The translations under genes and the position numbers were made by a program. Below the pieces are notes generated by a model. That model did no database searches and was not told the origin of the DNA. It saw only the letters and a program-made list of their open reading frames with translations. This document shows, piece after piece, positions 1 to 55,683 of a stretch of DNA of 64,000 bases (within the stretch, counting starts at the first letter, position 1; every line of letters starts with the position of its first letter). This stretch comes from Blastocatellia bacterium (GTDB lineage Bacteria > Acidobacteriota > Blastocatellia > UBA7656), in the NCBI GenBank assembly GCA_045807725.1, contig JBJMGV010000089.1, forward strand, positions 4,787-68,786, written 5' to 3'.

Positions 1-1248
1 GGTGTATTCGGGCAGGCGCTCGGCATTCGGCTTCTGGCTTTCAGCCGCGAGCCGCACCAGCGCGCGCGCCACATGGAAGAGGTCGGAGTTGAAGCCCGCG
101 CCGCCTTCGATCAACGAATACTGCCGCGAGTAAGCCGGCAGCGCCTTGCGTCCGCGCGCGATGTTCTCCCACGCGTCGCCATACTCTTTCTGCATTTTCG
201 GATTGGCGGCGACCGCACGGCGCAACGCGTCCTCGGCCTTCTGCTTCTTCGCCATTAGCGTCGCGTCTTTCAAGCCGGCGTACTGGCCGCGATAGGCTTT
301 CAGGCTGTTTTCAATGCCGAACTTATCTTCTTGCGCGCGCCGCGCCTGCTCTTCGCCGAGCGCGCTGTACTTCTCAAGCATCGCGTGCCTGCGTTCGAGC
401 AATCGCAACGTGAAGGGCATCCCGGTGTCGCGCAAGTATTCAAGGTGCGCCACCGTGTTCAAGCGCGCCGTCGAGCCGGGGTGGCCCGACACGAAGACCA
501 GCTCGCCGTCTTTCGCGCCCGTCTTTGACCACTTAAAGTAGTTTTCGCTATGAACCGGCTGGTCGTTTTCGTAGACGCGGAAAAGCGCCATATCGAGGTC
601 GTAGCGCGGGTAGTTGAAGTTGTCGGGGTCGCCGCCGAAGAAAGCGATCTTGAACTCCGGCGCGAAGACCAGCCGCACGTCCGTATATTTTTTATAGCGA
701 TAAAGATTGTACTGGCCGCCTTGATAAAGCGTCACGACATCCGAGCGCAGCCCGGTCTTTTCGGTAGATTCTTTCTCGATGGCGGCAAGGGCAGCGCGGC
801 GCGCGGCGTTGGCCTCGGCCCCGCTCATCTCAGGCTTGACGGCGGCGTTGACGCGGTCGGTCACGTCTTCGAGGCTCATCAGCACGTTCAACTCAAGGTC
901 GGGCGCTTTGACCTCTTTGTCGCGGGTCGGCGCGTAGAAGCCATCTTTGACATAATCCCTTTGCGCCGAGCTGATCTTTTGCAGCGTGTCCGAAGCGACG
1001 TGGTGATTGGTCAGCACCAGGCCGTTGGGCGACACGAACGAACCGCTGCCGCCATTGTTGAAGCGCACAGAACCGAGCTGAACCTTCTTCAGCCAGGCGT
1101 CGGTGATGTCAAAGCCATAACGGTTTTTAATTTCGGCGCGCGGCACGTTGTTGAACGTCCACATGCCTTCGTCGGCGCGCGCGAGCGGCAGGCTCGACAG
1201 GCCGAACAGGGCAACAAACAACAGGCTAAACAATTTTTTTGAGTTCAT
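1..1248 (-). CDS. S46-family serine dipeptidyl-peptidase (DPP7/DPP11-like), first 416 codons; 3' end lies beyond the window start
   Basis: Not in the ORF track because it runs off the window. Own translation of the minus strand from ATG (CAT at 1246-1248): MNSKKLFSLLFVALFGLSSLPLARADEGMWTFNNVPR...GSFVSPNGLVLTNHHVASD... A signal peptide is followed by DEGMW and TNHHV motifs that I associate with peptidase family S46. The frame stays open to position 1. Confidence 0.7.
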   Translation of the reverse strand, partial: MNSKKLFSLLFVALFGLSSLPLARADEGMWTFNNVPRAEIKNRYGFDITDAWLKKVQLGSVRFNNGGSGSFVSPNGLVLTNHHVASDTLQKISSAQRDYVKDGFYAPTRDKEVKAPDLELNVLMSLEDVTDRVNAAVKPEMSGAEANAARRAALAAIEKESTEKTGLRSDVVTLYQGGQYNLYRYKKYTDVRLVFAPEFKIAFFGGDPDNFNYPRYDLDMALFRVYENDQPVHSENYFKWSKTGAKDGELVFVSGHPGSTARLNTVAHLEYLRDTGMPFTLRLLERRHAMLEKYSALGEEQARRAQEDKFGIENSLKAYRGQYAGLKDATLMAKKQKAEDALRRAVAANPKMQKEYGDAWENIARGRKALPAYSRQYSLIEGGAGFNSDLFHVARALVRLAAESQKPNAERLPEYT

Positions 1249-1316
1249 GCAGAATCTCCTTGAAGAAATATCGCAGCGGCTTGATCAACGGTAGCAGCGT
1301 GTCCGACGAGCGCAGC

Positions 1317-1354
1317 AAAAAACGGGGCGAGTCGTTTGCACATCGCCTCGCCCC
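1317..1354 (-). terminator. Rho-independent terminator downstream of mnmG
   Basis: Minus strand reads GGGGCGAG-gcgatgtgcaaacga-CTCGCCCC followed by GTTTTTT; lies about 160 nt after the mnmG stop. Confidence 0.7.
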
Positions 1355-1513
1355 TACCATTCTGCTTACTTGGAGAAGAGATAGCAGTGCTTTGCTGCTA
1401 ATGAAATTCTAGCAGAGTGCAAAGACGGATTGCTAGTGTTTGGACTAAAGCGCCGCCGCCATTGCAACGTGATGGCTTGGCGAATGACCGCGCCCGATCT
1501 CGCCCGCCGCGTC

Positions 1514-3391
1514 TCAGTTTTTGAGCGCTGCGATCAACAGGATCGAAACCGCCGCCGGCGTGACGCCCGGTATGCGCGCCGCCTGGCCAATGGTGCGCGG
1601 GCGCACGCGTCCGAGCTTCTGCACGACCTCGTTCGACAGTCCCGATATGCGCGCGTAGTCGAGGCTGTGAGGAATCTCAAGCTCGTCGTAACGACCGCGC
1701 CGACGCGCCAGCGTCTCCTGGTCTTTCAGATAACCGGCGTAACGCAGGTCGTTCATCGCCACAACGACCTCTTTCTCTTTCACCTCGTCGCCGAGGCTGG
1801 CCGTCACAATCTCAAGCAAGCGCGGCTGCGGGCAATCCGGGCGGCGCGCGAGATAATCCAGCCGCTTGCCGCGATAAGCGTCCCTCCCGCCTTCGAGCCT
1901 CAACTCGTCGAGCACGTCATCACCCAAGTCATTCACTTTCGAGTCGCGCAAACATGCTTTGACGCGCTCAATGTCGCGCTGGCGGCGCTCGAACGCTTTG
2001 TAATCTTCATCGCTCACTGAACCGATCTCGCGCGCAAGCGGCGTCAATCGCTGGTCGGCGTTGTCGTAGCGCAACGACAGGCGCATCTCTGCGCGCGAGG
2101 TGAACATACGATAAGGCTCGTCCGCGCCTTTCGTCACCAGATCATCCACCATCACGCCGATGTAGCTCTGGCTGCGGTCGAGCACGACCGCTTCGCGCCC
2201 AAGCGCCGCGCGCGCCGCGTTGATGCCGGCGACGATGCCTTGCCCGGCGGCCTCTTCGTACCCGGACGTGCCGTTGATCTGGCCGGCGTGAAACAGCCCG
2301 CGCACGCGCCTGGTTTCGAGTGTGGCGTCGAGTTCGCGCGGGTCAACGAAGTCGTACTCGACCGCGTAACCGGGCCGCAGCATCTTGACTGATTCTAGGC
2401 CCGGTATCTTGCGAACGAATGCGAGCTGCACCTCTTCGGGCATACTGGTCGAGATGCCGTTCGGGTAGACTTCGTAAGTTTGATAACCTTCCGGCTCAAG
2501 GAAAATTTGATGGCGCGGTTTGTCGCTGAACTTCACAACCTTGTCTTCAATCGACGGGCAGTAGCGCGGCCCGACGCCGGTGATCTCGCCGCTAAATAAT
2601 GGCGAGCGGTCGAGGTTGCGGCGAATCTCGTCGTGAACCTCTTCGTTCGTGTAGCCGATGAAGCATTCGATCTGCGCCCGCTCAATTCGGTCGGTCTTGA
2701 ACGAAAACGGCACGGGCCGTTCGTCGCCCGGCTGGCGCTCGAACTTCGAGTAGTCAATCGTGCGGCCATCGAGTCGCGGCGGCGTGCCGGTCTTGAGCCG
2801 CCCCATCTGAAATCCGACGGCGCGAATCGAAGCCGCCAGCTTGATGGAGGCCGGGTCGCCGGCGCGGCCCGCTTGAAAGGTCTTCTGCCCGCAATGAATC
2901 AAGCCGTTCAGAAACGTGCCCGTAGTCAAGACTACACATCGACTTTCGATGAACGTCCCGTTCGCAAGCTCGACGCCCGTGATCTGTTCGCCGCGTATGC
3001 GAATCTCTGCCGCCTCGCCTTCGATGATCGTCAGGTTTTCCGTAAGCGATAGTCGGCGGCGCATCTCGGCGCGATAAAGATTGCGGTCGGCCTGCGCGCG
3101 CGGCGACTGCACCGCCGGGCCGCGGCTGCGGTTGAGCAGGCGGAACTGTATGCCGGTGGCGTCGATCACCTCGCCCATAATGCCGCCGAGCGCGTCCACC
3201 TCGCGCACGAGGTGGCCTTTGGCGATGCCGCCGATGGCGGGGTTGCAGCTCATCTGGCCGATGGAGTTGGCATCAATCGTGACCAGCGCGGTCTTCGCGC
3301 CAATGCGCGCCGCAACGTAAGCGGCTTCGCACCCGGCGTGCCCGCCGCCAATGACAATCACATCGTATCTCGTATTCACATTCTCCATCAT
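1514..3391 (-). CDS. mnmG: tRNA uridine-5-carboxymethylaminomethyl modification enzyme MnmG (GidA)
   Basis: 625 aa. N-terminus [16 protein letters not shown] (FAD fold), then [24 protein letters not shown] and [11 protein letters not shown], typical of MnmG. Confidence 0.95.
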
Positions 3392-3410
3392 TCGTGCTCA
3401 ATCGTGTGGA

Positions 3411-4787
3411 TCACTTGCCGATGCAGAAGGTCGAGAAGATTTGACCGAGAATATCATCCGTCAATGTTTCGCCGCTGATCTCGCCGATGCTCTGCAACGC
3501 GCTGTGCAGATTTAACAGGATGATCTCTTCAAGCTCGCGCTCGATCATCAGGTCGCGGGCCTTGTCGATTTGCGCAATGGCTTGCGTCACTGCCGCGTGC
3601 TGACGCGCATCGGTAATCATTATATCATCTCGCTCCAGCGCCGCGTCACCGCTCAGTCGGGCGAGTATCGCCTTAATCAATTCCTCAAAGCCTTCGCCTA
3701 TCACCGCCGAAAGCGTGAGCACATCGCTTTCAACAACCTCTGCAAGCGCTCTCGAATCAATGCACATCGGCAAGTCCGTCTTGTTCATCGCCACAAGGCG
3801 GCGCGCCGACGGCACATCGCCGAGCAGTTGCCGGTCGTCTTCGGTAAGCGGCTCTGAAGCATCGAGCACAAGCAACGTGATGTCGGCATCGGCAATAGCC
3901 GTGCGACTGCGCGTGATGCCGATGCGTTCAACTATGTCGCGGGTCTCGCGTATGCCTGCGGTGTCGATCAAGCGAACCGGAACGCCCGCAATCGATGTGT
4001 TCTCGTAAAGCGCGTCACGCGTCGTGCCCGGCAGCTCTGTGACGATGGCGCGGTCGTGGCCGACGAGCCGGTTGAAGATCGACGACTTGCCGACATTCGG
4101 GCGACCGACGATGGCGAGATCGAAGCCTTCTTTGACGAAGCGCCCGAAAGCGAAGCTGCCGGCGACTTCTTTCAGAGATTCGTTGACGTGCTCAAGCCGC
4201 TCGCGCAAGGCAGATGAAGCTTCAGGTGAGATGTCGTCTTCGACAAATTCGACCGAGGATTCAAGATGAACGATGACTTCAACGAGCGCTTCCTTGATCG
4301 GCATCAGCCGCTTTGACAGCGCGCCTTCAAGCTGCCGCGTCGCCACGCGGGCTTGATATTCAGTCTGCGCGTTAATGCAGTCGCGCACGGCCTGCGCCTG
4401 CGCCAGATCAATGCGGCGATTGAGGAATGCGCGAAAGGTGAACTCGCCCGGCTCCGCAATGCGCGCGCCGCGTTCGACCGTCATCGCCAGCACGCGGCGC
4501 AGAATCACGGGACTGCCGTGACAGCTCAACTCGACGACATCTTCGCCGGTGTACGAGTGCGGCGCTCTGAAGTAAGTCAGCAGCGCCTCGTCAACCGAGT
4601 CATCGGTGGCCGGATCAACGACGCGCCCAAAATGCACACGGCTCGGCGCATCAAGCGTAGCGCGCGATTCAGTGGTAAAGATTACTGAAGCGATTTCGAG
4701 AGCGAGCGGGCCGCTCAAGCGAATGACGCCGATGCCGCCGCGACCGGGCGGCGTCGAGAGAGCGGCGATGGTGTCGTGTCGGAACAT
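3411..4787 (-). CDS. mnmE: tRNA modification GTPase MnmE (TrmE)
   Basis: 458 aa. G-domain GRPNVGKSS / DTAGIR / NKTDL and the C-terminal FCIGK motif. Confidence 0.95.
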
Positions 4788-4885
4788 AGAGGCTAGAGGC
4801 TAGAGGCTAGAGGCTAGAGGCTGGCAGGAGAAAACCGCTGACTCGCTGTCTTCCCGCTAGTCTCTAGCCTCCAGTCTCCAGCCTC
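4788..4885. repeat. Tandem-repeat-armed hairpin H1, CTAG type: (GGCTAGAG)x4 arm / about 30 nt centre / complementary CTCTAGCC-type arm
   Basis: GGCTAGAG copies at 4791-4822. The opposite arm, 4856-4885, reads gctagtctctagcctccagtctccagcctc. Fills the whole gap between the jag stop (4886) and the mnmE start (4787). Confidence 0.9.
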
Positions 4886-5338
4886 TTACTTCGCCGGATA
4901 GATCGTTACCTTGCGATGGTCGCCGCTGCCCTGGCTTTCGCTGCGCACAGAGGCGTCAGTGGAGAGCGCCAGGTGGATGATGCGCCGCTCGCCCGGACTC
5001 ATTGGATCGAAGGTGAAGGGTGCGCGGGTCTGGCGGACGCGCTCGGCGGCTTTCTCGGCCATCAACTGCAACTCTTTTTCGCGCTGCGCGCGGTAGCTGC
5101 CCGAATCGAAGACGAGATGATGCTCTTCGCCGGTGACGTGCGCCAGCATGCGATTGCCGAGATGTTCGAGCGCGTCGAGCATCTCGGCGTTGTGGCTGAG
5201 CAGGATGGCGCGGTCGCCGCCGCGCACCTGCACGCGCACGGCTTCGCCGAGCGGCTCGACGCTGGCACGCAAGTCAAGGTCGCTCTGTTCGAGCACACGA
5301 TTGATAAAGTCCACGACGCTGTTGATGTCACCTTCCAT
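4886..5338 (-). CDS. jag: Jag/KhpB-like RNA-binding protein (KH + R3H domains)
   Basis: 150 aa. C-terminal GERRIIHLAL...R3H-like segment. Conserved position between yidC and mnmE. Confidence 0.8.
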   Translation of the reverse strand: MEGDINSVVDFINRVLEQSDLDLRASVEPLGEAVRVQVRGGDRAILLSHNAEMLDALEHLGNRMLAHVTGEEHHLVFDSGSYRAQREKELQLMAEKAAERVRQTRAPFTFDPMSPGERRIIHLALSTDASVRSESQGSGDHRKVTIYPAK

Positions 5339-5359
5339 CGTTCACATCCTCAATGCGGC

Positions 5360-7240
5360 TCAAGAAAGATCGCTGCTTGGCAATACTGTGCGCTCCTTGC
5401 CGGCTTTCGCTTTCCCTTTTGGCTTGGTCGGCGGCTGCGGCGTGCGCGAACTGGCCGTGCTGCTGCCGGCCACCGCGCCCGCCTCCGGCTCGGCGTTTCG
5501 TTTATTAATCAAAAGCTGTATGCCGACGCCGACCATGTTGCTCACCATCCAGTAAAGCACCAGCCCGCTCGGCGCTGACAGGAAGAAGAAGTAAGTCAGC
5601 ATCACCGGCATCAACCACGTCATCATCACGCGCTGCATCTTCATTGCCGGGTCGGCGCTGGCCGGCTGCGGCGTGAACTTGGTCGAAGCGATCATAGTGA
5701 CACACATTACAATCGGCAGAATCTTGAAAGGGTCGGGTTTCGAGAGGTCGTTGATCCAGCCGAGCCAGTGCGCGTGGCGCACGTCCAGAGACATGCTCAG
5801 GTACATGTAGACCGACCAGAAGATCGGCAGTTGCAGCAGCATCGGCAAACAGCCGCCCAGCGGGTTCGCCTCTTTCATCAAGGCGAGTTGTTCCTGTTGC
5901 AGTTGCTGCAACTCGCGCTCGTACTTTTTCGGGTTCTCCTTGAGCTTCTTCATACGATCTTGAAGCTCTTTCAGGCGCGGCTGGTGCTTGGCCGCCTGTT
6001 TCATCTTCTTCGAGCTTGAAGCGCGCAGCGGCCACATCGCCAGGTTGATGAGCACGGTGACGACGACGATGGCCCAGCCATAATTGTGGAAGAGGCCGTA
6101 GAGCAGGTTGAAGGCCGCCGCCAGCGGGTAGATCAGCGGGCGCACGACGGCTCCGAAGAAACCGTAGTCAATTACCGCGCCGAGATTGGCTTTGATGCGA
6201 TCACCGACTTCAGCCAACAACTCGCGGCCTTTCGGGCCGACAAAAATATGTAGTTCACTACTCGCAGGCACCGCCACCGACGGGTAATCGTGAGCCGGCT
6301 GATTCGGATCAGGCTTGGCTTGCACGTTCGCCGGCGTGATGCCGTTGACCGGCTGCGCGGGGACGGCCAGCATAGCAAAGTAATGATCGGCGACGCCGGC
6401 CCATTGGTAAGTATGAGATGCCGTGCTGGACGGATTTGCCTTTGCGCCCGCCAATTGCTGGCGGCTGCCGTCAGTGGTGTACATTACAATTTGCGGCGGC
6501 GTGCTGTAACTGCCACCGCCTTTATCGCTCTGGTCGCCAAAGCCCGACCCGACGACGATCTGCACCGGCTGATCGCTGCCGGTTACGCTTGCCTTCGCGT
6601 CAAAGACCAGTCGGTCGCCGTAGAAAGTGAACTCTTTGACTGCCGTCGTCGCGCCGCTGGTCGCGCTGAAGGTAATGGTCCGCTGCTCGCCTTGTTGAAT
6701 ATCTATTTTGTCCTGGCTGACATCTACGCCATCCATTTTTATGTGATAGTAGGTTGCCGGCTCTTTCGGATAATTCAACGATTCGGCGACTTCAGGATGA
6801 TCCGGCAAAAGCAGCGCGAGCGGTGCGTCAAGTCCTTCCGGCAGCGGCTGCGGGATGAGTTGCAACGCGCCGCCGGCGGCTCCTTCAATCGACTTGAAAG
6901 CGCCGCCTTCGTGATAGCCTTTGAGAATCCACGAGGTCGCCACCGCGCCGCGATTCGTTAGCGTTACATTCCAGTAAGGCGTTTCAATGACAAGGTCGCG
7001 CGGCGGCACAGGCATCGCGGGCACAGGTGTTCCTGGTGCAGTCGCGATTGCGCGCGGCGCAGGTGTAGCGGCGACGGGCGCGGGCGTTGCAGGCTTCGGA
7101 CTGCTGGCGTCTTGCGATGAAGTAGCGACCGGCTCTGACACAGGCGATGGCGGGAAGAAGCGGTTCATGAGCAGCGAGTAGCCCATCAGAACGACTACGG
7201 AAAGAACCAGCGCCAACAGCAAACGTTTACGATCCATCAA
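5360..7240 (-). CDS. yidC: Membrane protein insertase YidC
   Basis: 626 aa. N-terminal TM helix, large periplasmic domain, then a C-terminal 5-TM core (..KMKQAAKHQPRLKELQ..ANPLGGCLPMLLQLPIFW..). Has a Pro/Ala-rich linker and a basic C-terminal tail. Confidence 0.93.
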   Translation of the reverse strand: MMDRKRLLLALVLSVVVLMGYSLLMNRFFPPSPVSEPVATSSQDASSPKPATPAPVAATPAPRAIATAPGTPVPAMPVPPRDLVIETPYWNVTLTNRGAVATSWILKGYHEGGAFKSIEGAAGGALQLIPQPLPEGLDAPLALLLPDHPEVAESLNYPKEPATYYHIKMDGVDVSQDKIDIQQGEQRTITFSATSGATTAVKEFTFYGDRLVFDAKASVTGSDQPVQIVVGSGFGDQSDKGGGSYSTPPQIVMYTTDGSRQQLAGAKANPSSTASHTYQWAGVADHYFAMLAVPAQPVNGITPANVQAKPDPNQPAHDYPSVAVPASSELHIFVGPKGRELLAEVGDRIKANLGAVIDYGFFGAVVRPLIYPLAAAFNLLYGLFHNYGWAIVVVTVLINLAMWPLRASSSKKMKQAAKHQPRLKELQDRMKKLKENPKKYERELQQLQQEQLALMKEANPLGGCLPMLLQLPIFWSVYMYLSMSLDVRHAHWLGWINDLSKPDPFKILPIVMCVTMIASTKFTPQPASADPAMKMQRVMMTWLMPVMLTYFFFLSAPSGLVLYWMVSNMVGVGIQLLINKRNAEPEAGAVAGSSTASSRTPQPPTKPKGKAKAGKERTVLPSSDLS

Positions 7241-7881: not shown

Positions 7882-7960
7882 CAGTGGCCAGTGGGCAGCA
7901 GCCAGTGACCAGTAGTAAGCGAGCACCTACTGACCACTGACCACTGGCCATTGATCACTG
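7882..7960. repeat. Tandem-repeat-armed hairpin H2 (CCAGTG/GACCAGT-type units)
   Basis: Left arm cagtggccagtgggcagcagccagtgaccagtag (7882-7915). Right arm ctactgaccactgaccactggccattgatcactg (7927-7960), imperfectly complementary. Lies between the rpmH stop (7963) and the rnpA start (7878). Confidence 0.8.
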
Positions 7961-8673: not shown

Positions 8674-8769
8674 GAGCGAAGGGCGAAAAGGGAAAAGGCG
8701 AAAGGGAAAAGAAGCTGCTACGTTGGCCGCTGCTTTTCCCCTTTCGCCTTTTCGTTTTTCCTTCTCGCC
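8674..8769. repeat. Tandem-repeat-armed hairpin H3 (GGCGAAAAGGGAAAA-type units)
   Basis: Left arm gagcgaagggcgaaaagggaaaaggcgaaagggaaaag. Right arm cttttcccctttcgccttttcgtttttccttctcgcc. Lies between the convergent STAS gene (stop 8662) and TPR gene (stop 8776). Confidence 0.85.
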
Positions 8770-16423: not shown

Positions 16424-17836
16424 CTATCGACCACCGACCATAGTTCGGTTGCGGCGCAGGTCGTCGGTGATGAAGTGGCCGCGAATCAAGTCTATGCCAA
16501 GCGTTGCGCCGTGTGGCGGGCGTAAAGTGAGAGCCGGGTTGGACGTGGCTTCGAGCCATATCTGGCGATAGCCGGTCAAAACCAACACAGCTTTATCGCT
16601 CGACCAGAACGTCGTTTGTTGCAGTAGCTCGACGCGCGAAGCCAGTTGTTGGAGCGGGTGATTGAAATCTGACGGCTTTACTGACGAAAGTTCTGCCGTG
16701 CCGCCGGCGAGGGCAGATGATCCATTGCCTTTTCCTGCCGGCAGCGGTGACTGTTCGTTGCGGTCGGCAACGGCGGTAGCTAATCGCTCAAACAGTTCGA
16801 CCGAGCCTTTGCCAATGATGTCGGCGAACTCGGCGAGATAAGCCGCCAGACTCATTTCATGTTCAGCCTCAAGATAGAGCGCCGATGAGCTGATGCCTTG
16901 ATGAACGCCCTTGAGCCGTATGTCCGCGTGGTTGAGGTGGGTGATTTGGAACTCGCACAGGTGCGCCAGAATCACCGCCCAGACTTCATCGCCGACGCGG
17001 CCTTCGATCAAAACCTGCGCCGTCGGCTTACCGATGATGCCGACGAATGCCTCCTCAATCAAGGCGCGGTCTTCGTGATGATCGTCTATGCCAAGGTCGA
17101 TCCAATCGGCCCAGGCATCATCGAGTTTAACGCCGGCGAATTGAATGTCCCGCAGCTTCGCGCCAGTCAGATTGCAGCCGCGCAGCATTGCCCCTGAGAG
17201 GTTGGCTCCGCGCAGGTTGGCGCGCGTCAGCGTACTGGCCGAAAGATTGGCCCCCATCAGATTCGCGCCCACCAGACAACAACCATCGAGCCGCACGCCT
17301 GACAGGTCTGTGTAAGAGAGGTCAACGCCTTCGAGCATCGCACCTGATAGATTAGCTCCAGCCATTTGTGCCATGCGGACGTAGGCATTTGAGAGGTTCG
17401 CGCCCGTCAGGTCGGTTTCATTGAGGAAGGTGCCGACCAGATAAGCTCCGGCCAGTTCGGCACACTGTAAGTTCGCGCCCGTGAGGTCTGCGCCGCTAAG
17501 GTCGGCTCGACTCAGGTCTGAACCAATCAGCGACGCGCCGATGAGGCTGGCTTCGACCAGATTTGCGCCAACCAGATTGACTTCGTTCAGCATCGCGCCG
17601 CTTAGAAAGCAGCCCGTCAGCCTTGCGTCACGCAGGTCTGAGCGCGACAACTCGGCCATACGCAGATTGGCTTCGCTAAAATCGGCCCGCGCTAAATCAA
17701 GCGCCGAGAGGTCCGCGCGGACAAAGTTTAACCCGCGCAGGCTTTCGCCACACGCAATGCGATCAAGGATTTCGCCTCTGGAAAATTGCGGCATCTCGAT
17801 TCTCGACGGACGCACAAGGAGCGCAGGGGCAGGCAA
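16424..17836 (-). CDS. Pentapeptide-repeat protein with an uncharacterised C-terminal domain of about 230 aa
   Basis: 470 aa; residues about 20-235 are continuous A(D/N)LxG-type pentapeptide repeats (ADLSGADLTGANLQCAELAGAYL...). I recognise no motif in the remainder. Confidence 0.8.
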   Translation of the reverse strand: MPAPALLVRPSRIEMPQFSRGEILDRIACGESLRGLNFVRADLSALDLARADFSEANLRMAELSRSDLRDARLTGCFLSGAMLNEVNLVGANLVEASLIGASLIGSDLSRADLSGADLTGANLQCAELAGAYLVGTFLNETDLTGANLSNAYVRMAQMAGANLSGAMLEGVDLSYTDLSGVRLDGCCLVGANLMGANLSASTLTRANLRGANLSGAMLRGCNLTGAKLRDIQFAGVKLDDAWADWIDLGIDDHHEDRALIEEAFVGIIGKPTAQVLIEGRVGDEVWAVILAHLCEFQITHLNHADIRLKGVHQGISSSALYLEAEHEMSLAAYLAEFADIIGKGSVELFERLATAVADRNEQSPLPAGKGNGSSALAGGTAELSSVKPSDFNHPLQQLASRVELLQQTTFWSSDKAVLVLTGYRQIWLEATSNPALTLRPPHGATLGIDLIRGHFITDDLRRNRTMVGGR

Positions 17837-18101: not shown

Positions 18102-18830
18102 TTACTTTTTCTTCGCTTCCCACTTGCCGGTCATCTGGCCGGAGAAATCAAAGTCGCCGGAGATCTTGCCGTCTTTCACCGCCCCACTCATGGTAATCGA
18201 GCCTTGTGGCGTGTCGAGGCTAAAGCTCAGCTTATTGCCATCCCATTTGCCGTTGCTGATTGTGGCAGCGCCTTGATCGGATGAAGACGTGCCGGTGACT
18301 TTGTTACCTTCGAGCTTGAGCTTGAGAGTAAAAGGGATTGTCATGCCGCCAGCGTCAGCCGAGCCATCCCAGTCTCCCGAAATCGGGTCGCCTGCGGCGG
18401 CTGCCGGAGCGGGAGCAGACGAAGAAGCCGCCGGGGCTGTGCCGCCGGATTTCTTCAATTCGAGAGTGCCACCGGCTCCACCAAGCTCCCACTTGCCGAC
18501 GATCTTATCACCATTGAGCGTCGCCGTGACGATGCCTTCGTTGCCGCCGGCATCAAATTTGATCGTCACTTTACCGTCTGCGTAAGACCCGTCCGTGATA
18601 TTGGCCGGGCCTTGTGGTGTTTCAATCGTTCCAGAGAGCTTGCCGCTCGTATTTTTCAGATTCACGGTGAGCGGAATTTCGCCGAACGCCTCGCTCTTAG
18701 CGACGCCTTCGTACTTACCTGAGATGTCGGCCTTTTCGTCCAAAGCCAGTCTGTTAAACGGCGCGGCGAATGCGGCTGACGAGATCAACAGCGCAATCGC
18801 AAGCAGTGCAACGCTTCTTCGTAACTGCAT
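18102..18830 (-). CDS. Secreted protein with two homologous halves (unknown function)
   Basis: 242 aa; signal peptide MQLRRSVALLAIALLISSAAFA. Two similar modules (..GKLSGTIETPQGPANITDGSYADGKVTIKF.. and ..NKVTGTSSSDQGAATISNGKWDGNKLSFSL..) are separated by an Ala/Ser/Pro linker. Confidence 0.7.
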   Translation of the reverse strand: MQLRRSVALLAIALLISSAAFAAPFNRLALDEKADISGKYEGVAKSEAFGEIPLTVNLKNTSGKLSGTIETPQGPANITDGSYADGKVTIKFDAGGNEGIVTATLNGDKIVGKWELGGAGGTLELKKSGGTAPAASSSAPAPAAAAGDPISGDWDGSADAGGMTIPFTLKLKLEGNKVTGTSSSDQGAATISNGKWDGNKLSFSLDTPQGSITMSGAVKDGKISGDFDFSGQMTGKWEAKKK

Positions 18831-19088
18831 CTTTCAGTCTCCTAATGGTGGTTTTCAATTTTGAAATCAAGCCAATCTGCAACTTGAGAATGACCAATCT
18901 TCGAGGCCATGTATTTATAACGTAAAATGCGCGTGCATCAAAGCAATTTTATCGTGGTGAAGCCCCGGGGCAGGCTGATCTGCTAGGCAAGGGTTCATCG
19001 AGAATCGCTTGCGAGTCGATATGGAACGAGATTGTCCAAGGGAGGGTCGAAAGGTCGGCACATAAATATAAAAGTAACTAATATTATT

Positions 19089-19949
19089 TTACTGCGTACG
19101 TTGAATCAATAAATCAAATAATCTCGATAGGTCATCGCTTGAGGAAAACTTGATCTCAATAATGCCTCCCTCTTTGAGAAGTTTTATCCGTGCAGGGGCC
19201 GCCAGGCTTTTGCTCAATTTCTGCTCGGCGGCGGCAATATTGGGATCTCTGCGAACCGGGGGTTGGTTCTGTTGGGCGGAGCCATTCGGCTCGCTGACTT
19301 GAGGGTCTCGAACTAGCCGTTCGGTTTCACGGACGCTCAGCGTCTTTTCGATGATCTCGTGAGCAAATAGGAGTTGTTGATCGGCAGTTTCCAGTGACAA
19401 TAGTGCGCGAGCGTGCCCCATTGAAAGTTTCTCATCCTCAACCAACTGTTGAATCTCAGGCGGTAATTTAAGAAGACGGAGGGAATTAGTTACCGAGGAG
19501 CGATCTTTTCCTACTCTTCTTGCCACTTCTTCTTGTGAAAGGGAAAGCACATCAACCAGTCTTTTATAGGCAGTAGCTTCTTCGATTGGATTCAAATCCT
19601 CACGTTGGATATTCTCGATCAGCGAAATCTCCAAAACGTTTTCGTCGGTGATATCTCGCACGATGCAGGGAATTTTACGCAATCCTGCTATCTGTGCTGC
19701 TCGCCACCGACGTTCACCGGCAATGATCTGAAAGCGTTCTCCGTCTCTGCGTGCGACTATCGGCTGAATAACTCCATTCGTCTTTATCGATTCTGCTAAT
19801 TCATTTATTTTTTCTTCTTTGAAATGTTTGCGCGGCTGTGCTTCGGTCGGATAAAGCAGATCAATATCGATATCCATCAAATCAGATTCGCTTGTCTGCA
19901 TCTGCGTAAAGAGGGCACTAAGCCCCCTGCCCAGAGCCTTTCTTGACAT
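19089..19949 (-). CDS. parB: Chromosome partitioning protein ParB (Spo0J)
   Basis: 286 aa; MSRKALGRGLSALF.., QPR.HF, GERRWRAA and an HTH segment. AT-rich codon usage. Confidence 0.93.
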   Translation of the reverse strand: MSRKALGRGLSALFTQMQTSESDLMDIDIDLLYPTEAQPRKHFKEEKINELAESIKTNGVIQPIVARRDGERFQIIAGERRWRAAQIAGLRKIPCIVRDITDENVLEISLIENIQREDLNPIEEATAYKRLVDVLSLSQEEVARRVGKDRSSVTNSLRLLKLPPEIQQLVEDEKLSMGHARALLSLETADQQLLFAHEIIEKTLSVRETERLVRDPQVSEPNGSAQQNQPPVRRDPNIAAAEQKLSKSLAAPARIKLLKEGGIIEIKFSSSDDLSRLFDLLIQRTQ

Positions 19950-20700
19950 TATTTATAACCTCCTTGGCGAGTCTGAGATAGCTTTCAGCTCCCTTCGATT
20001 TAATATCGTAAAGGACAATCGGCTTGCCGTGGCTCGGAGCCTCAGCTAGCCTGACGTTGCGTGGAATGATCGTGCTAAAAACTTGCGACCCCAGAAAATC
20101 TCGCAAATCGGAGACTACTTGATTTGAGAGATTAGTGCGCTCATCGAACATTGTTAAAAGAAATCCCTCGATAGTGAGGCTTGGGTTGAGTGAACGTCGA
20201 ATTTTTACCAATGTATCCCACAACTCGGATACCCCCTCTAGAGCAAAGTACTCACATTGTATCGGAATCAGCACTGAATTTGCTGCGGCAAGCGCATTTA
20301 GCGTCAATAGGCCTAAGCTTGGCGGGCAGTCTATAAGAACATAATCATAGGCACCGACAATTGGCTCTAATAGTCTTTTTAGGCGAAATTCACGTTGATC
20401 TAGATCAACTAATTCAATCTCCGCGGCAACGAGGATTTTCTCTGATGGAACAATTTTGAGGGTTGGAAGTTCCGTCTTTAGAGCAATAGATTCAATCGGC
20501 TCGTTTAGAACGAGACTATGGTAAAAACTTCTATAGAATTTTCCTCTTTGACCTAAGCCGCTCGTGCTGTTGCCTTGAGGGTCTGCATCTATGACTAACA
20601 CCCGCATATCGGCAACAGATAAGCAGGCAGCAAGGTTGATCGTCGTCGTAGTCTTGCCGACACCTCCTTTTTGATTCGCAATCGCTATGATCCTCGCCAT
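19918..20700 (-). CDS. parA: Chromosome partitioning ATPase ParA (Soj)
   Basis: 260 aa; deviant Walker A NQKGGVGKTTT. 32-nt overlap with the parB start. Confidence 0.93.
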   Translation of the reverse strand: MARIIAIANQKGGVGKTTTTINLAACLSVADMRVLVIDADPQGNSTSGLGQRGKFYRSFYHSLVLNEPIESIALKTELPTLKIVPSEKILVAAEIELVDLDQREFRLKRLLEPIVGAYDYVLIDCPPSLGLLTLNALAAANSVLIPIQCEYFALEGVSELWDTLVKIRRSLNPSLTIEGFLLTMFDERTNLSNQVVSDLRDFLGSQVFSTIIPRNVRLAEAPSHGKPIVLYDIKSKGAESYLRLAKEVINNVKKGSGQGA

Positions 20701-20780
20701 TAGGTGCTAACATATCACAAATTGGCCCACGATCAACGAAAAATCTTGCGCAATTCCTGGAATAGACTTTAGTACGAATA

Positions 20781-20796
20781 TGTTTCACGTGAAACC
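20781..20796. promoter_or_regulatory. parS centromere-like site
   Basis: TGTTTCACGTGAAACc matches the widely conserved parS consensus TGTTNCACGTGAAACA at 15/16 positions; about 80 nt upstream of parA. Confidence 0.8.
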
Positions 20797-20837
20797 TGCA
20801 AATAGAGATTCAAGATGTGCTAGAGAAGAAAAGAGGA

Positions 20838-20853
20838 TGTTTCATGTGGAACG
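20838..20853. promoter_or_regulatory. Degenerate parS-like site that also contains a TGTGGAAC DnaA-box-like core
   Basis: TGTTTCATGTGGAACG matches parS at 13/16. TGTGGAAC recurs in the dnaA-dnaN intergenic box cluster. Confidence 0.4.
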
Positions 20854-21082
20854 CACGACATAAAGACCTAAAGCCAATCGCTGAGTATCTAGAAAATTTA
20901 CGTGTCATTCATCAGAGATATTCCCTACGATTCCGCAAGATGGATCAATTCATCCAAATATAGACAGGGAAGTTATCGGATGACCAAAACTCCATCATAA
21001 ACCACTGGCGCATCAATATAAGATCGTGCTATTTTTATCAACTTTGATGATTTTAGATTATTGCAAGCGAGCTTCTAGGTGA

Positions 21083-22609
<1,527 letters not shown>

Positions 22610-22699
22610 TTTTACTAACATAATTACACCGATGTTAGAAAATTACCCTTGAAAGGAAGACCGGCGGCTCAGGACTGAGTCGCCGGCGATATTAAATCT

Positions 22700-23116
22700 A
22701 TGCCAGACAGACTCCACCTTGAAGTAGTAATTCCTGAACGGAGAGTATTTGGAGCCGAAGTGGATCGGGTCGAAGTGCCGGGACTAGACGGGGAATTGGG
22801 TATTCTCCCTGGCCACACGGACTTAATCTCGCAACTGAAGCCAGCAGGTCTCTTGACTTATCATATCGGTGACGAAAAAGGCGAGATTGCAATTAGTGAT
22901 GGCTTTGTCGAGATCAGTCAAGATCGCGTCATCATCCTAGCGGACAGAGCGGAACGGCCTGAGGATATAAATTTGACGGAGGCGCTTAAACTTAAAGATC
23001 AGGCAGAGCACGAATTGCAACAGGCGCTCGCAGACCCGGACAGCGACATAATCCGCGCGAGCGTTGAACTCGAACGCGCCTCCATCATCTTGCAGCTTGC
23101 GGAAAGAGCTCGCTAA
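22700..23116 (+). CDS. atpC: F1 ATP synthase epsilon subunit
   Basis: 138 aa; LHLEVVIPERRVF...VPGLDGELGILPGH; immediately follows atpD. Confidence 0.9.
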   Translation: MPDRLHLEVVIPERRVFGAEVDRVEVPGLDGELGILPGHTDLISQLKPAGLLTYHIGDEKGEIAISDGFVEISQDRVIILADRAERPEDINLTEALKLKDQAEHELQQALADPDSDIIRASVELERASIILQLAERAR

Positions 23117-23367
23117 CACTCCATAAGATATTATAAAAAAGAGACTTAGCCTCTCTTAAGAGATAGGATACAGTCGCTTAAATTGAAAAATATTGGCCTT
23201 TTTTTCAGTACGGATTTGATTGAAAACCGCCGCTCTGTGTGATACTGTTTCCCAGCTTTCAAGCATGCACCTTCGCGGGCACTGGCGTGTTAAAGCATTA
23301 ATGAGTAGGCCTTCGTTGATGACGAGGGTATTGGCACAGGCAATCTTCAATCAGATCATTTTCAACT

Positions 23368-24741
23368 ATGCAAGCCGATTTACTTTCGTCTATTCTTTCT
23401 GCCATCTCGAAACGAGTTAATCACCAGAGCTTCAACACGTGGTTCAAGCCTATCTCACATGCGACAAGGGATGATTCAACAATCTACCTAAAAGTGCCGA
23501 ATGAGATATTCCGTGATTGGATCACTAACAACTACTTTGATGTGATTGAGGAATCCCTCCTCGAACTCAATCTAGACGGCTACACGCTCGACTTTCTCGT
23601 CGAAGAGCAAAAATCTCAGAATGGCAATGGTGAAAGGCTGACGCAGGCCACACGCACTGCCGCACATCCGGTAAAAGAGATGGTCAGCTATGGGATTGCT
23701 AAAGTCATAGACCTTGAGCCCATTGAGCTGCCTCTTAATCCTAAGTATACTTTTGAGACTTTTGTCGTCGGTTCTTGCAATCAGTTCGCCCATGCAGCAT
23801 CGCTAGCGGTCGTTGACATGCCGTCAAAAACCTACAATCCTCTGTATATTTACGGTGGGGTTGGACTTGGAAAAACTCACCTGATGCACGCAATCGGTCA
23901 AGCGATTAAAGTAAGAACTAACAATTTACGTTTGACTTATATTTCATCCGAAAAATTCATGAATGAGTTAATCAACGCGATCCGTTATGACAAAACAATC
24001 TCTTTTAGGGAAAAATATCGCAATATCGATGTCCTTTTAATGGATGACATCCAGTTCCTCGCAGGAAAAGAGAGAACCCAGGAAGAGTTCTTCCACACAT
24101 TCAACGCCCTTTATGACGCTCAGAAACAGATTGTCATTTCGAGCGATTGTCCGCCGCGCGAGATTCCGACACTCGAAGAGCGTCTCCATTCCCGATTTGA
24201 ATGGGGACTGATTGCCGATATCCAGCCCCCGGACCTCGAAACCAAAGTGGCGATATTGAAGCGCAAAGCCGAACTGGAGAAGATAGACTTGCCGGATAAT
24301 GTCGCCTTGTTCATCGCCAGCAAGATCAAATCGAATATACGAGAACTGGAAGGTTCGCTAGTCAGGCTGGTCGCTTATGCTTCGCTTAAGGGACTGCCTA
24401 TTGGCATAGAGTTAGCTCAAGATGTTCTGAGAAACATTATCGAAGAAGATACGGACGGCATTTCTATCGAGTTGATTCAAAAGAAAGTCGCCGGACATTA
24501 CGGATTAAAAGTAGGCGATTTGAAATCGAAGAACAACTCGCGCAATATTGCTGGACCTCGACAGGTGGCAATGTATTTGTGTAAGACCTTAACGAAATCG
24601 AGTCTCCCAGAGATAGGGCGCGAATTTGGCGGCAAACATCATACGACCGTGCTACACAGCATTAACAAAATTGCCGACCTTTATAACAAGGATGGAGTTT
24701 TCCACAAGCTTATCAACAGCTTTATTGCTGAAATAAAATAG
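23368..24741 (+). CDS. dnaA: Chromosomal replication initiator DnaA
   Basis: 457 aa; [18 protein letters not shown], Walker [11 protein letters not shown], and C-terminal domain IV ..[16 protein letters not shown]. Confidence 0.96.
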
Positions 24742-25009
24742 CTTAGCTAAGTTTTCCACATGACCGGGTTGTGGAGCCCTTGTGGAACCTGTTGAAAACT
24801 GTTGAAGTTAGCCAAAGGCTCCACAGGGCAGGCCGCTTTTGCACAGGTTTTGCACAGCCTTTTGCACAGCCTTATTTGATCTTTTATATTGTATTTTAAA
24901 CAATTTGCCATCAGGGTTCCACTTTTCCACAGGCACTACTACTACTACTAGATCATGACATGTAGTGAAAGATTAGAACTACTAGTAAAAGGCAGAATCG
25001 AGGTGAATA
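24742..25009. other. Chromosomal replication origin (oriC): DnaA-box cluster plus AT-rich unwinding element
   Basis: Box-like 9-mers: TTTTCCACA 24752 and 24923; TGTGGAGCC 24770; TGTGGAACC 24781; GGCTCCACA 24817; TTTTGCACA 24837, 24848 and 24860; GGTTCCAC 24915. The AT-rich stretch cttatttgatcttttatattgtattttaaacaatttg lies at 24871-24907. This is the classical dnaA-dnaN position. Confidence 0.8.
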
Positions 25010-26119
25010 ATGCGCTTCAGTTTGAGTAAGGCATCGCTTCTCAGAGAGTTGAATCTTCTTCAAGGCGTAGTCGAGAAGAAGAATACCATTCCTATTCTTT
25101 CAAACGTTCTTATAGAGACTCTGGGTGAATCGCTGGTTTCACTCATCGCTACAGACCTGGATGTGTCGTTGCAAACCGAATGCACAGCGGACGTCAGTCA
25201 CCCAGGCGCGGTGGTCCTGCAAGCCCGGAAACTCTTCGACATTGTCCGCAATCTCCCGGACGCCGAGATCAACTTCTCTAAAGAGGAAAACGACTGGGTG
25301 CGGATTAGCTGTGGCGCATCCGAATTCCGTATCGTCGGCCAAGCCAAAGAGCATTTTCCATCGACACCCGGATTAAAAGAAGGCGGCCAACTGATCCCGA
25401 CTGCCGCGTTGCACGACTTGATCAGCCGGACCATCTACGCCATCACACAGGAAGAATCGCGTTACGCGCTCAACGGCGCATTGTTGCTGCTGGCTGACGG
25501 CAAGCTGCAAATGGTGGCGACCGACGGGCACAGGCTCGCCCTGGCGGCGTTCTCGCTCGAAGGCACGACCGACGAGCAGGTACGCGTGATCATTCCTAAG
25601 AAGGCGCTGGGCGAATTGCTCAAGCTGACCTCCGGGAGCGAAGGCGCGTTGACGTTTGCGAAGGACGAGAACCATCTCTACTTCAAAGTCGATCAGCGGC
25701 TATTGACTTCGAGAATGCTGGCGGGCCAGTTCCCGAATTACGATCTCGTCCTGCCGAAGAATAATGACAAACTGGTTCCGCTGAACACCGAGCGGTTCGC
25801 GCAGGCCATTCGCCGCGCCGCGTTGATGGCTGATGAGCGCAGCCGTGGCATCAAGCTGGAACTGAGCAGCGGCAAGATCAATCTCACAGCGCAGAGCGCG
25901 GATGTGGGCGAAGCGAAAGAAGTCATTCCGGTCGATTATACTGGAGATGCGGTCAATATCGGCTTCAACGCGCAATACATCTCTGACTTTCTCGGCGTCG
26001 TCGGCACCGAGCAGATTGCGCTAGAGGTCAAGGACGAGCAAAGTCCGGCCTTGCTGAAACCGGCTGGGGACGGGCAATATGATTATCGCTATGTGGTCAT
26101 GCCCATGCGGCTGATCTGA
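25010..26119 (+). CDS. dnaN: DNA polymerase III beta sliding clamp
   Basis: 369 aa; ..NTIPILSNVLIE..., ATDGHRLA, ..YVVMPMRL at the C-terminus. Confidence 0.95.
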   Translation: MRFSLSKASLLRELNLLQGVVEKKNTIPILSNVLIETLGESLVSLIATDLDVSLQTECTADVSHPGAVVLQARKLFDIVRNLPDAEINFSKEENDWVRISCGASEFRIVGQAKEHFPSTPGLKEGGQLIPTAALHDLISRTIYAITQEESRYALNGALLLLADGKLQMVATDGHRLALAAFSLEGTTDEQVRVIIPKKALGELLKLTSGSEGALTFAKDENHLYFKVDQRLLTSRMLAGQFPNYDLVLPKNNDKLVPLNTERFAQAIRRAALMADERSRGIKLELSSGKINLTAQSADVGEAKEVIPVDYTGDAVNIGFNAQYISDFLGVVGTEQIALEVKDEQSPALLKPAGDGQYDYRYVVMPMRLI

Positions 26120-30020: not shown

Positions 30021-31337
30021 CTAAGACTGACCCTGCGCGCTGCTCATTTCGCTTACGTATTGGCCGGCGAGTTGCGACATCGCTTCGCTCACTTCGATAG
30101 GGAAGCAGATGCGGTCAATGCGATAGCCGCGCATACCGCGCACGACTTCCGACACTTCGCTGATCTCACGTATCTCAGGGCGCGGCCAGCCCGATTCAAT
30201 ATAAATCAGACTCTCCGTATCAACGCCCACTGGCGAATAGTAGCCGTAATACGGCACGTCGGCGGCGCGGTCCAGCACTAGGTAATAAGCCGGATCGAAG
30301 CCTGCCTGTCGCACGACTTCTTCGGCTTGCATCCAGAAAGACTTCGCCGCGTCGGCGACGAATTCCAGATCAATCGTCTTAAACAGCTTGCGGTCGATGA
30401 AACGCGTCGAGAGGTCAGCCAGCGTAGCGTCCGCGTCGCGCGTCCACTGCTTCAGGTGAAACACCAGATCGGTGTCGTCGAGCTGCAAGTACTCCTGCGT
30501 GGTGACGGGCTGGCCGAGCAGCATTTTTTCAAAGACCGAATCGCGCATACGAAACCGCAGCCGGTCCTGCTCGATCAACTCTCTGGCTCGCGTCAGCGCC
30601 GAAATCAAGACCGCCTCGGCTGACCGCAACGTGCGGTGGAAGTAGACCTGCCGGAACATGTAGTAGCGCGCCTGCAAATATTCTTCGACCGCGTACAGCC
30701 CTTTTGATTCGACGTAGACGCGACCTGACGCGTCGTCAATCTTGAGCGCGTGCAGCACCCACTCCAGATCATAGATGCCATACTTCGCGCCGGTCATCAG
30801 GCTGTCACGCAGCAGGTAATCCATACGGTCGCAATCGAGCTGCGACGAGACAAGCTGGGTGACAAAGGCCGGCGAGTAATTATGCTTATAAAGCGAGGCG
30901 AGCCGGGCGGGGAGTTGCGCGTCGTGCTGGCGTAGTATCTGGTTGACTTCGGTGCTTTCGTCTTCGACGATGCGGCACGTCCAGTCTTCGTGATGATAGC
31001 GGAAGACTTTCTCCATCACGTGTGAGAACGGCCCGTGTCCGAGGTCGTGTAGCAACGCGCCGGCGCGACCGACGACGCGCGCCTCATCGCTGATCGAATG
31101 ATGAGCCGCGAGCAAGTTCAATGCCCGCGTCATCAAGTGCATCACGCCGATGGAATGTGTGAAGCGGCTGTGCTCGGCTCCTTGGTAGGTGAACAGCGCG
31201 ATGCCGAGTTGCTTGATGCGGCGCAGCCGCTGGAACTCTGCCGAATCAATCAGCGCAATGATCAAACGGTCATCGGCCAGCGACTCGTCGAGCGAGATCA
31301 TGTTGTGAAGGGGATCGCGATAATTCCGCTGCGGCAA
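30021..31337 (-). CDS. HD-domain phosphohydrolase (SAMHD1/dNTPase-like, COG1078-type)
   Basis: 438 aa; [11 protein letters not shown].....[10 protein letters not shown]...[12 protein letters not shown]...[12 protein letters not shown]. Confidence 0.8.
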
Positions 31338-46540: not shown

Positions 46541-47086
46541 ATGCCAGTAGTGACCACACAGGCGAAGAAACGAACACTGGGCCAGATCGTCAGGCGATTG
46601 TTGCTGATCGATCTATTCAAAGGACTGGCGCTGACGTTTCGCTACAACGCGCGGGCGCTTTACGAGCCGCGCGACGGCGGCAATCCGTTGCAAGCCATCT
46701 ACACCGAGCAGTACCCGAAAGAGCCTGCGCGGGTGTCTGAGCGTTTTCGCGGCGCGCCGCGCTTGAACCTCGACCCGGAGAACGGCGCGTCGCTGTGCAT
46801 CGCCTGCGACCTTTGCGCGCAGGTGTGCCCGGTGGATTGCATCGAGGTCGGCTCGATTCGCCGCGAAGTCCGCGACGGTCAGAAGGTCAACAAGAAAAAA
46901 GTGCTGACGACATTCATCTACGACACGTCGCGCTGTATGTTTTGCAACCTCTGCGTCGAAGCCTGTCCGACCGACTGCCTTGAGCTGACGCAGAGCTTCG
47001 AGCTGGCGGTTTATCACCGCGCCGGTTTTCGCTGGGACCGCGAGATGCTTGAAAAGGGCATCAACTACGTGCGCTACACGAAGTAG
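46541..47086 (+). CDS. nuoI: NADH-quinone oxidoreductase subunit I (2x[4Fe-4S])
   Basis: 181 aa; CIACDLCAQVCP and CMFCNLCVEACP. Confidence 0.93.
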   Translation: MPVVTTQAKKRTLGQIVRRLLLIDLFKGLALTFRYNARALYEPRDGGNPLQAIYTEQYPKEPARVSERFRGAPRLNLDPENGASLCIACDLCAQVCPVDCIEVGSIRREVRDGQKVNKKKVLTTFIYDTSRCMFCNLCVEACPTDCLELTQSFELAVYHRAGFRWDREMLEKGINYVRYTK

Positions 47087-47177
47087 AGACTAGAGACTAG
47101 AGACTAGGGGCTAGCGGGGAACAGTCGCAATCAACGCCTTGTTCCTGCTAGTCCCTAGCCCCTAGTCTCCAGCCTCT
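47084..47177. repeat. Tandem-repeat-armed hairpin H4, CTAG type ((GACTAGAG)n / GGCTAG)
   Basis: The left arm tagagactagagactagagactaggggctagcgggg starts on the nuoI TAG stop. The right arm is cctgctagtccctagcccctagtctccagcctct. The nuoJ ATG is at 47189. Confidence 0.9.
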
Positions 47178-47785: not shown

Positions 47786-47884
47786 TGATGAGCGATGAAT
47801 GATGAATGATGAATGAAAGAGACAAGTCCCATTGCGGTGGGCGCAAGCGCCGGCAGTTCGTCATTCATCATTCATACTTCATTG
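47786..47884. repeat. Tandem-repeat-armed hairpin H5 ((ATGAATG)n units)
   Basis: tgatgagcgatgaatgatgaatgatgaatgaaag ... tcgtcattcatcattcatacttcattg. Starts 1 nt after the nuoJ TAA. Confidence 0.85.
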
Positions 47885-48329: not shown

Positions 48330-48334
48330 AACGA

Positions 48335-48412
48335 AGTGATGAGTGATGAGTTGGAAGTGATGAGTTAAAATGCGGCTCATCACTCATCACTCATCACTTA
48401 TCACTTATCACT
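48335..48412. repeat. Tandem-repeat-armed hairpin H6 ((GTGATGA)n units)
   Basis: agtgatgagtgatgagttggaagtgatgagtt-aaaatgcgg-ctcatcactcatcactcatcacttatcacttatcact. Ends 5 nt before the nuoL ATG. Confidence 0.9.
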
Positions 48413-55672: not shown

Positions 55673-55683
55673 ACGGTGATTGG

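Follow-up and report, generated by a model that had tools for sequence, protein, structure and literature searches.

Why should the genes and sites from which a bacterium starts its chromosome lie in DNA that looks foreign to the rest of that chromosome? The window considered here (the whole stretch of DNA analysed, 64,000 nucleotides of contig JBJMGV010000089.1 of a Blastocatellia bacterium) contains a block of about 6.3 kb (18831-25140) that is low in guanine plus cytosine (GC) and carries the partition genes parB and parA, the ATP synthase genes atpD and atpC, dnaA, a putative origin spacer and the 5' end of dnaN. An earlier inspection of the letters of this DNA (the sequence-only reading) had left three explanations unranked: replacement of the module by a low-GC donor, a chimeric assembly, or strong local selection for AT-richness around the origin. 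The comparisons below speak against the donor and against the chimera; of the third option, an origin-linked AT-richness remains, while strong selection for it is harder to reconcile with a silent rate that is up and not down in the block. We consider it likely, at a probability of roughly 0.72, that the block is native and vertically inherited, and that it is shaped by a persistent local substitution regime in one clade of soil-dwelling Blastocatellia (Acidobacteriota).

The block has a GC content of 46.0%, compared with 59.3% in the rest of the window, and when all 64 kb were profiled, every 1-kb window below 52% GC fell between 18.5 and 25.5 kb. Against 92 other windows of 6.31 kb (57.3-60.7% GC; standard deviation 0.8%), the block lies at z = -16.7. 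GC content at third codon positions (GC3) is 0.456 in ParB, 0.448 in ParA, 0.490 in AtpD, 0.518 in AtpC and 0.507 in DnaA, without overlap with the 0.599-0.823 of 30 other genes in the window (Mann-Whitney p = 4e-4). The low-GC block proposed by the sequence-only reading is therefore real, and its hand counts on 60-nt lines were reproduced on recomputation (30, 40, 41.7 and 36.7% inside; 63.3, 53.3 and 66.7% outside). Those lines were extremes, however, and the mean drop is only 13 points instead of the 20 or so that had been claimed. The shift in codon usage described at the time also holds, with AAA at 63% in the block vs 39% outside, AGA at 25 vs 5%, GGC at 35 vs 70% and CTG at 14 vs 35%; TTA, AGA and ATA codons are all commoner in the block.

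The following features make up the block and its edges:
18831-19088: left border, 258 bp of intergenic DNA separating parB from the gene at 18102-18830, in which GC falls from about 0.57 to about 0.41 (100-bp GC profile).
19089-19949, minus strand: parB, Spo0J-type partition protein (GC 0.474; TIGR00180, 200.6 bits against a cut-off of 58).
19918-20700, minus strand: parA, partition ATPase (GC 0.458; family-level ParA NCBIfam matches), overlapping parB by 32 nt.
20781-20796: parS, TGTTTCACGTGAAACC, one mismatch to the consensus, in the divergent parA/atpD spacer.
20838-20853: a weaker parS copy in the same spacer, 57 nt beyond the main parS.
21119-22609, plus strand: atpD, F1 beta subunit (TIGR01039, 820 bits).
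22700-23116, plus strand: atpC, F1 epsilon subunit (TIGR01216, 105 bits against a cut-off of 67).
23368-24741, plus strand: dnaA, replication initiator (GC 0.448; TIGR00362, 556 bits against a cut-off of 344).
24742-25009: oriC-like dnaA-dnaN spacer with DnaA-box variants and an AT-rich stretch, a candidate origin by sequence and position.
25010-26119, plus strand: dnaN (TIGR00663, 314 bits, above cut-off).
25010-25145, plus strand: right border, the first 45 or so codons of dnaN, with a sliding GC3 of 0.45-0.50 that then rises to 0.68-0.85.

The borders placed by eye at about 18.8 and 25.1 kb thus correspond to a left step within the spacer 18831-19088 and a right step early in dnaN. The gene content had been described as core origin functions only, and the NCBIfam matches, the parS at 20781 and the DnaA-box cluster bear this out; open reading frames (ORFs) of at least 80 aa in the block are these core genes and, beyond them, shadow ORFs only. 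We found no mobility gene in the block (ORF list and NCBIfam), no tRNA or tmRNA in the 64-kb window, and no convincing or att-like flanking direct repeats, only imperfect 14-21-nt chance repeats, in agreement with the earlier statement that integrase, tRNA, insertion sequence (IS) element and direct repeats are lacking. An Rfam scan of 17-27 kb returned no RNA family, and promoter and terminator scans were unremarkable.

Block genes on both strands are equally AT-shifted without strand asymmetry, the spacers of the block are AT-rich too, and GC at first and second codon positions (GC1 and GC2) of the block genes is lower in taxa with the dip than in taxa without it, with a weaker effect than at third positions. 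At four-fold degenerate sites of the window block the four bases are almost equally frequent (A.25, T.25, G.23, C.27), whereas the GC content of such sites (GC4) is 0.75-0.77 in the flanks. Because both strands, the spacers and GC1 and GC2 are all affected and the four-fold sites are unbiased, the shift points to a pressure on the DNA itself rather than to tuning at the codon level.

The dip is shared by relatives. The closest DnaA relatives are 77-94% identical, and those with names are metagenome-assembled genomes (MAGs) of Blastocatellia or Acidobacteriota; no entry identical to the exact window DnaA sequence is on record. Among 11 loci with DnaA at least 82% identical, GC in the flank exceeds GC in the block by 0.069 to 0.188 in 10 (window +0.121; others +0.116, +0.115, +0.188, +0.152, +0.108, +0.173, +0.069, +0.123 and +0.108), the exception being one locus, L002, at +0.036. 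The sequence-only reading had held that the same dip in relatives would mark a lineage trait and not a transfer, and this is the pattern observed. In a sister clade with the same gene order (DnaA 74-79% identical), the difference is only +0.021 to +0.048 in 12 of 12 loci (Mann-Whitney p = 5e-4 between the clades). By this yardstick, protein make-up accounts for about 4 points of the dip, and the other 7-15 points are a trait specific to the clade. Flanks across the relatives have a GC of 0.51-0.60 and blocks 0.40-0.47, and even the lowest flanks sampled stay above the blocks.

The extent of the dip varies within the clade. In the window, L091 and L169 it ends in the 5' part of dnaN, and in the group of L001, L085 and L087 it extends right through dnaN and the regulator gene in a graded manner, reaching up to about 9 kb in L001. 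At a rearranged locus (L171, sample ERZ922866, 8000-12000), dnaA lacks parAB-atpDC neighbours, and its GC3 is 0.41; the 1.1-kb upstream spacer is also low, and an unrelated acetyltransferase gene beside dnaA has a GC3 of 0.44, compared with 0.58-0.66 farther out. This single case hints that position and not gene identity matters.

To what extent might the block have a different history from its surroundings? Neighbour-joining trees of the block (AtpD, AtpC and DnaA; 1086 columns) and of the flank (DnaN and the response regulator; 592 columns), which cover few genes, both recover the group of the window, L091, L002, L001, L085, L086 and L087 with 100% bootstrap support, and within it the group of the window, L091 and L002, again with 100% in both. 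The comparison of block and flank phylogenies that had been suggested as a check is thus congruent. Non-synonymous divergence (dN) orders the relatives alike for DnaA and for the more distant flank genes (HD and permease). DnaA of the clade is 57-59% identical to that of Pyrinomonadaceae, with block proteins nested within the family. Since the block and flank trees agree, the block is not a recent import, whether its source were another branch of the family or a lineage beyond it. The proposed replacement by a low-GC donor finds no support either, as block proteins branch like flank proteins, the nearest DnaA sequences belong to the same Blastocatellia lineage and the gene order is kept in relatives. 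As outgroup context, a contig scan with DnaA gave 59% identity (Pyrinomonadales) as the best among the matches listed, and a search of a plasmid collection returned just generic atpD similarity, with no plasmid or chromid relationship.

Relatives share the order parB-parA / atpD-atpC-dnaA-dnaN-regulator-oxidoreductase-PEGA/TPR-HD-permease, which was found on a 2.9-Mb contig (L001, ERZ25039485:contig_4703) and on several contigs of 200-400 kb from different projects. Since this order recurs across independent contigs, the module and its right flank are ancestral to the family. Every locus that is long enough has the same genes in the same order, except the rearranged L171 and L175, and there is no presence/absence polymorphism. 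Conserved gene order could, in principle, let an assembler switch species within conserved genes, so that the conserved block of a lower-GC relative would be joined into the contig. The left border, however, adjoins a poorly conserved gene (18102-18830); scanning metagenomes with its protein yielded 80 loci, and a compositional step at the same left gene border was found in three independent assemblies:
L089 (another Joint Genome Institute (JGI) sample, 82-85% nucleotide identity): GC3 of 0.65 and 0.58 in the left flank, 0.44 in ParB and 0.46 in ParA.
L091 (a 323-kb contig, Ga0307468_100000007, DnaA 93% identical): GC3 of 0.62-0.69 in the left flank and 0.40-0.51 from ParB through DnaA; on the right, 0.61 in DnaN and 0.60 in the regulator, so that the right step is present as well as the left.
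L092 (a related contig): GC3 of 0.65 in the left flank, 0.48 in ParB and 0.48 in ParA.
The same step at the same borders is seen in L169, L170, L001, L085 and L086, again from other samples and assemblers. Because differing species, samples and assemblers repeat the junctions, an assembly chimera is excluded for practical purposes.

We then asked how the silent sites of the block have evolved. In block genes, synonymous sites differ between the window and seven relatives at a proportion of 0.76-0.95, and among most relatives with the dip at 0.78-0.91. With silent sites saturated, the shared low GC3 does not reflect retention of individual sites and must be kept up in each lineage separately. 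Substitutions were polarised in L086 and L172 (93-94% identical) with L175 as outgroup, counting changes from A or T to G or C (W->S) and the reverse (S->W) and comparing the present GC with the equilibrium GC that they imply (GC*):
atpC to dnaA, all sites: 67 W->S and 59 S->W; GC 0.38, GC* 0.41; stationary.
dnaN, third positions: 9 W->S and 24 S->W; GC 0.54, GC* 0.31; still losing GC.
Response regulator (gene beginning about 1.4 kb past dnaA), third positions: 10 W->S and 8 S->W; GC 0.62, GC* 0.67.
At the tips separating L172 and L173 (99.3% identical), the block shows 8 W->S vs 8 S->W changes and the flank 7 vs 23, and the flank tips give a raw mutational GC* of about 0.30, near the GC of the block. 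The composition of the block is stationary and not ameliorating.

Synonymous divergence (dS) is also higher in the block than in the flank, in all four usable pairs:
L086 vs L172: block about 0.30, flank about 0.165 (means).
L001 vs L085: block about 0.46, flank about 0.31 (means).
Window vs L089: ParB 0.97 and ParA 1.26, flank 0.50 and 0.54.
Window vs L091: block from at least 2.2 to saturated, flank 0.68-1.37.
Block dS is thus 1.5-2 times flank dS. Sliding profiles of L086/L172 and L001/L085 show even divergence, with no imported or sharply bounded divergent tracts. In sum, the block is native, its dip is a trait of the clade, its composition is stationary and its silent rate is raised.

What kind of regime would produce this pattern? 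In the reading we prefer, silent sites in the origin domain would change 1.5-2 times faster and settle at an AT-richer equilibrium, with a GC* of about 0.3-0.4 in the domain (L086/L172 lineage) vs about 0.67 at third positions of the regulator. The force that pushes the genome to about 59% GC, whether GC-biased gene conversion or selection acting on GC or on codon usage, may not act, or may be overridden, in the few kb around parS and oriC. Without it, sites would drift toward the equilibrium set by AT-biased mutation, and a locally higher mutation rate may assist that drift. The origin might escape that force as a recombination cold spot, as a domain occupied by ParB and DnaA, or through direct selection for AT. 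We regard a missing GC-raising force as a possible mechanism, at somewhat worse than even odds. Relaxed or missing fixation in favour of GC, or a mutational regime peculiar to the block, would explain the raised silent rate no less well than selection does. A bolder version, which we hold only tentatively and think on balance unlikely, is that parS and oriC are surrounded by a heritable substitution microdomain in which the GC-raising force is off, the silent rate is up and the bare mutational equilibrium is laid open. Its cause might be the occupancy or handling of origin DNA by a nucleoprotein complex of ParB, SMC and DnaA, or exclusion from recombination, and the regime would have arisen once in this Blastocatellia clade and be losable, as in L002.

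Several observations weigh against this reading. L002 (ERZ1759591 AH_forest_Scaff0842873, 209-5999) is sister to the window and L091 in both trees yet dip-free (GC3 of 0.72 in AtpD and 0.67 in DnaA; 0.63-0.72 overall), so the regime can be lost or the history is more complex. A simple, back-of-envelope model of fixation bias yields a dS ratio of only about 1.3 and not 1.5-2; because of this shortfall, the excess dS calls for a further cause: faster mutation, additional codon selection in the flank or a bias of the NG86 estimator. Of these, locally faster mutation or the estimator probably plays a part. Across bacteria, recombination is reported to be highest near the origin and positively correlated with GC (PMC11879095), the opposite of a cold origin. 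The contrasts between block and flank in polarised substitutions rest on small counts (Fisher p 0.10-0.12) taken from L086, L172 and L173 and not from the window's own lineage. Finally, relatives were compared over about 20 kb each, and their genomes may hold other such dips.

The third option of the sequence-only reading, selection acting directly on AT-richness throughout the origin domain, could act through easier unwinding, ParB loading at parS and sliding from it, or an AT-preferring nucleoid protein that organises the origin. It would account for a dip that is centred on parS and oriC, includes both strands and intergenic DNA, has sharp borders, outlasts saturating divergence and stays with dnaA where synteny is broken in L171. 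Such selection should, however, lower the silent rate, which is instead raised, and the four-fold sites of the window are merely unbiased; neither the sister clade nor L002 shows the dip although both share the genes, parS and the origin layout, and tens of base pairs suffice for known unwinding elements, far less than 6 kb. We therefore judge it unlikely. Selection at the level of codons, for example for rare codons that tune the expression of origin genes, would explain the enrichment of TTA, AGA and ATA, but is hardly credible when intergenic DNA is as AT-rich, GC1 and GC2 shift too, highly expressed atpD behaves like low-abundance dnaA and parAB, and dnaN switches regime in mid-gene. High expression as a cause was rejected as well, given that NuoL, GyrA, YidC and MnmG in the window have a GC3 of 0.72-0.81.

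Two further scenarios bring in DNA from elsewhere. If alleles of lower-GC relatives replaced the block again and again by homologous recombination, the block would mirror a wider gene pool, which would agree with a block dS above flank dS in each of the four pairs and with the recombination peak reported near origins in many species (PMC11879095). This is quite improbable in view of the congruent, fully supported trees and the even divergence along L086/L172 and L001/L085; moreover, with flanks above the blocks in GC in all relatives sampled, no donor pool is visible. A low-GC donor that replaced the module once, at the root of the clade, with slow amelioration since, would fit a dip that arises at one node of the tree and is absent in the sister clade, and a block GC that varies among descendants. 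It is more improbable still, as silent sites are saturated among those descendants, neither polarised comparison shows an excess of AT to GC changes in the block (67 vs 59; 8 vs 8), dnaN is still losing GC (9 vs 24), and the block proteins are nested in the family, with DnaA at 75-79% identity to the sister clade and 57-59% to Pyrinomonadaceae. The dinucleotide distance (delta*) of the block, 0.122 against at most 0.057 in other segments, was dropped as evidence of foreign origin, because the block of L003, a locus without the dip, also resembles the window block and gene content confounds the measure.

Compared with known systems, the block resembles a genomic island in being a sharply bounded segment of several kb with deviant GC, codon usage and dinucleotide signature. 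It differs in having no integrase, tRNA, IS element or att-like repeat, in a cargo of essential core genes whose phylogeny is that of the flanks, and in its stationary composition; it mimics an island in composition but shares none of the other traits by which islands are recognised. With oriC and parABS regions it shares a DnaA-box cluster, a 36-nt stretch of 14% GC, a consensus parS by parAB and classic origin-proximal genes. Known AT-rich origin elements, in contrast, span tens to a few hundred bp and are non-coding, whereas the AT shift here covers about 6.3 kb of mostly coding DNA, 20-100 times longer than known unwinding elements. In earlier work (Lassalle et al. 2015, PMC4450053; NAR 2024, PMC11879095), local GC3 is proposed to reflect how far fixation that favours GC offsets mutation biased toward AT, with gene-to-gene GC trends of a few points and small positive correlations between GC and recombination (PMC4450053, PMC11879095). 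The newest flank substitutions here are AT-biased (7 vs 23), as this framework expects; the discrete, heritable origin domain of 12-19 points is different, and of opposite sign. Because the literature reports the highest recombination near origins and a positive link with GC, a discrete low-GC domain at the origin is unexpected. We found no description in the literature, in which subscription journals were poorly covered, of a multi-kb AT-rich origin domain made of native genes.

Several details of the locus itself complete the picture. The DnaA-box-like motifs of the dnaA-dnaN spacer are TTTTCCACA (three copies), TTATCAACA, TGTGGAACC, TGTGGAGCC and GGCTCCACA; positions 24698-24931 hold 4 of the 9 DnaA boxes with one mismatch in the 64 kb, with further variants visible, and the 36-nt stretch at 24872-24907 (14% GC) is a candidate unwinding element. 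The spacer thus seems to have an oriC-like arrangement. Three tandem TTTTGCACAG(G/CC) units and an ACT/CTA triplet run lie at 24835-24869 and 24936-24950, the triplet run directly after a pair of DnaA-box-like motifs. GC skew is weak, and the cumulative skew turns from negative to positive somewhere within 12-20 kb, too weakly to place the origin; genes switch strand at the parA/atpD spacer. The window has 3 matches to parS where 0.20 are expected, a number reached in none of 100 shuffles. The third, TGCTTCAGGTGAAACA (30448-30463, two mismatches), lies outside the block within the HD-domain gene, about 9.7 kb to the right of the main parS. The ORF of atpD opens at a GTG at 21092, but the likelier start is the ATG at 21119, which is preceded by GGAG and gives 496 aa as in all relatives. 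The next gene after dnaN encodes an OmpR-type response regulator.

The pair atpD-atpC (21119-23116) stands apart from the other ATP synthase genes, wedged between parAB and dnaA and transcribed toward the dnaA-dnaN origin spacer. This order is kept in the dip clade and the sister clade (L001, L003, L085-L087, L091, L169, L170) and is absent from Pyrinomonadaceae loci such as L007 and L009. In several relatives the parA/atpD spacer is enlarged by transposase fragments (Y1_Tnp, Transposase_mut, HTH_Tnp_4), and the AT-rich origin block looks like a preferred target of insertions:
L086, 5469-7555; L172, 5573-6833; L087, 6185-7829; and the 5' ends of L173 and L174: enlarged spacers with transposase fragments.
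L175, 130-459 and 5305-6342: an HNH gene stands where atpD would be, and the response regulator is followed by an rve transposase.

Left of the block, 18102-18830 encodes a 242-aa secreted protein of two similar halves (GC3 0.64, host-like) without a Pfam or NCBIfam match. Its homologues adjoin parB in many, not all, relatives, which makes the left border a synteny break point. Farther left, 16424-17836 encodes a 470-aa pentapeptide-repeat protein. The window also contains long intergenic zipper hairpins, whose arms are tandem short repeats opposite their complements, at 4788-4886, 7882-7953, 8685-8760, 47085-47177, 47788-47882, 48334-48412, 54767-54862, 55678-55753 and 62011-62151. Their repeat units, for example (AGAGGCT)n, (GACGCGGC)n, (AGTGATG)n and (GGGAAAA)n, differ by site with a constant architecture. 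None lies in the block, as had been noted, which carries little weight in a segment with just 4-5 intergenic regions.

Sharp compositional islands are usually read as horizontal transfer, and here such a signal sits on genes that are native, essential and vertically inherited. Tools that call islands by composition, and filters for chimeric MAGs, would misclassify this block. If the regime is confirmed, it would offer a contrast within one genome, where a single cell and mutational machinery produce a GC3 of about 0.35-0.5 in the block vs 0.6-0.8 in adjoining genes. Relatives that bear the dip can be compared with close ones free of it (L002 and the sister clade), and L002 would serve as a natural 'revertant' within the dip clade itself. 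The upkeep of high GC in bacteria, whether by mutation bias, selection or biased gene conversion, would then become directly testable, and a physical property of the origin and partition domain that leaves an evolutionary footprint may be revealed.

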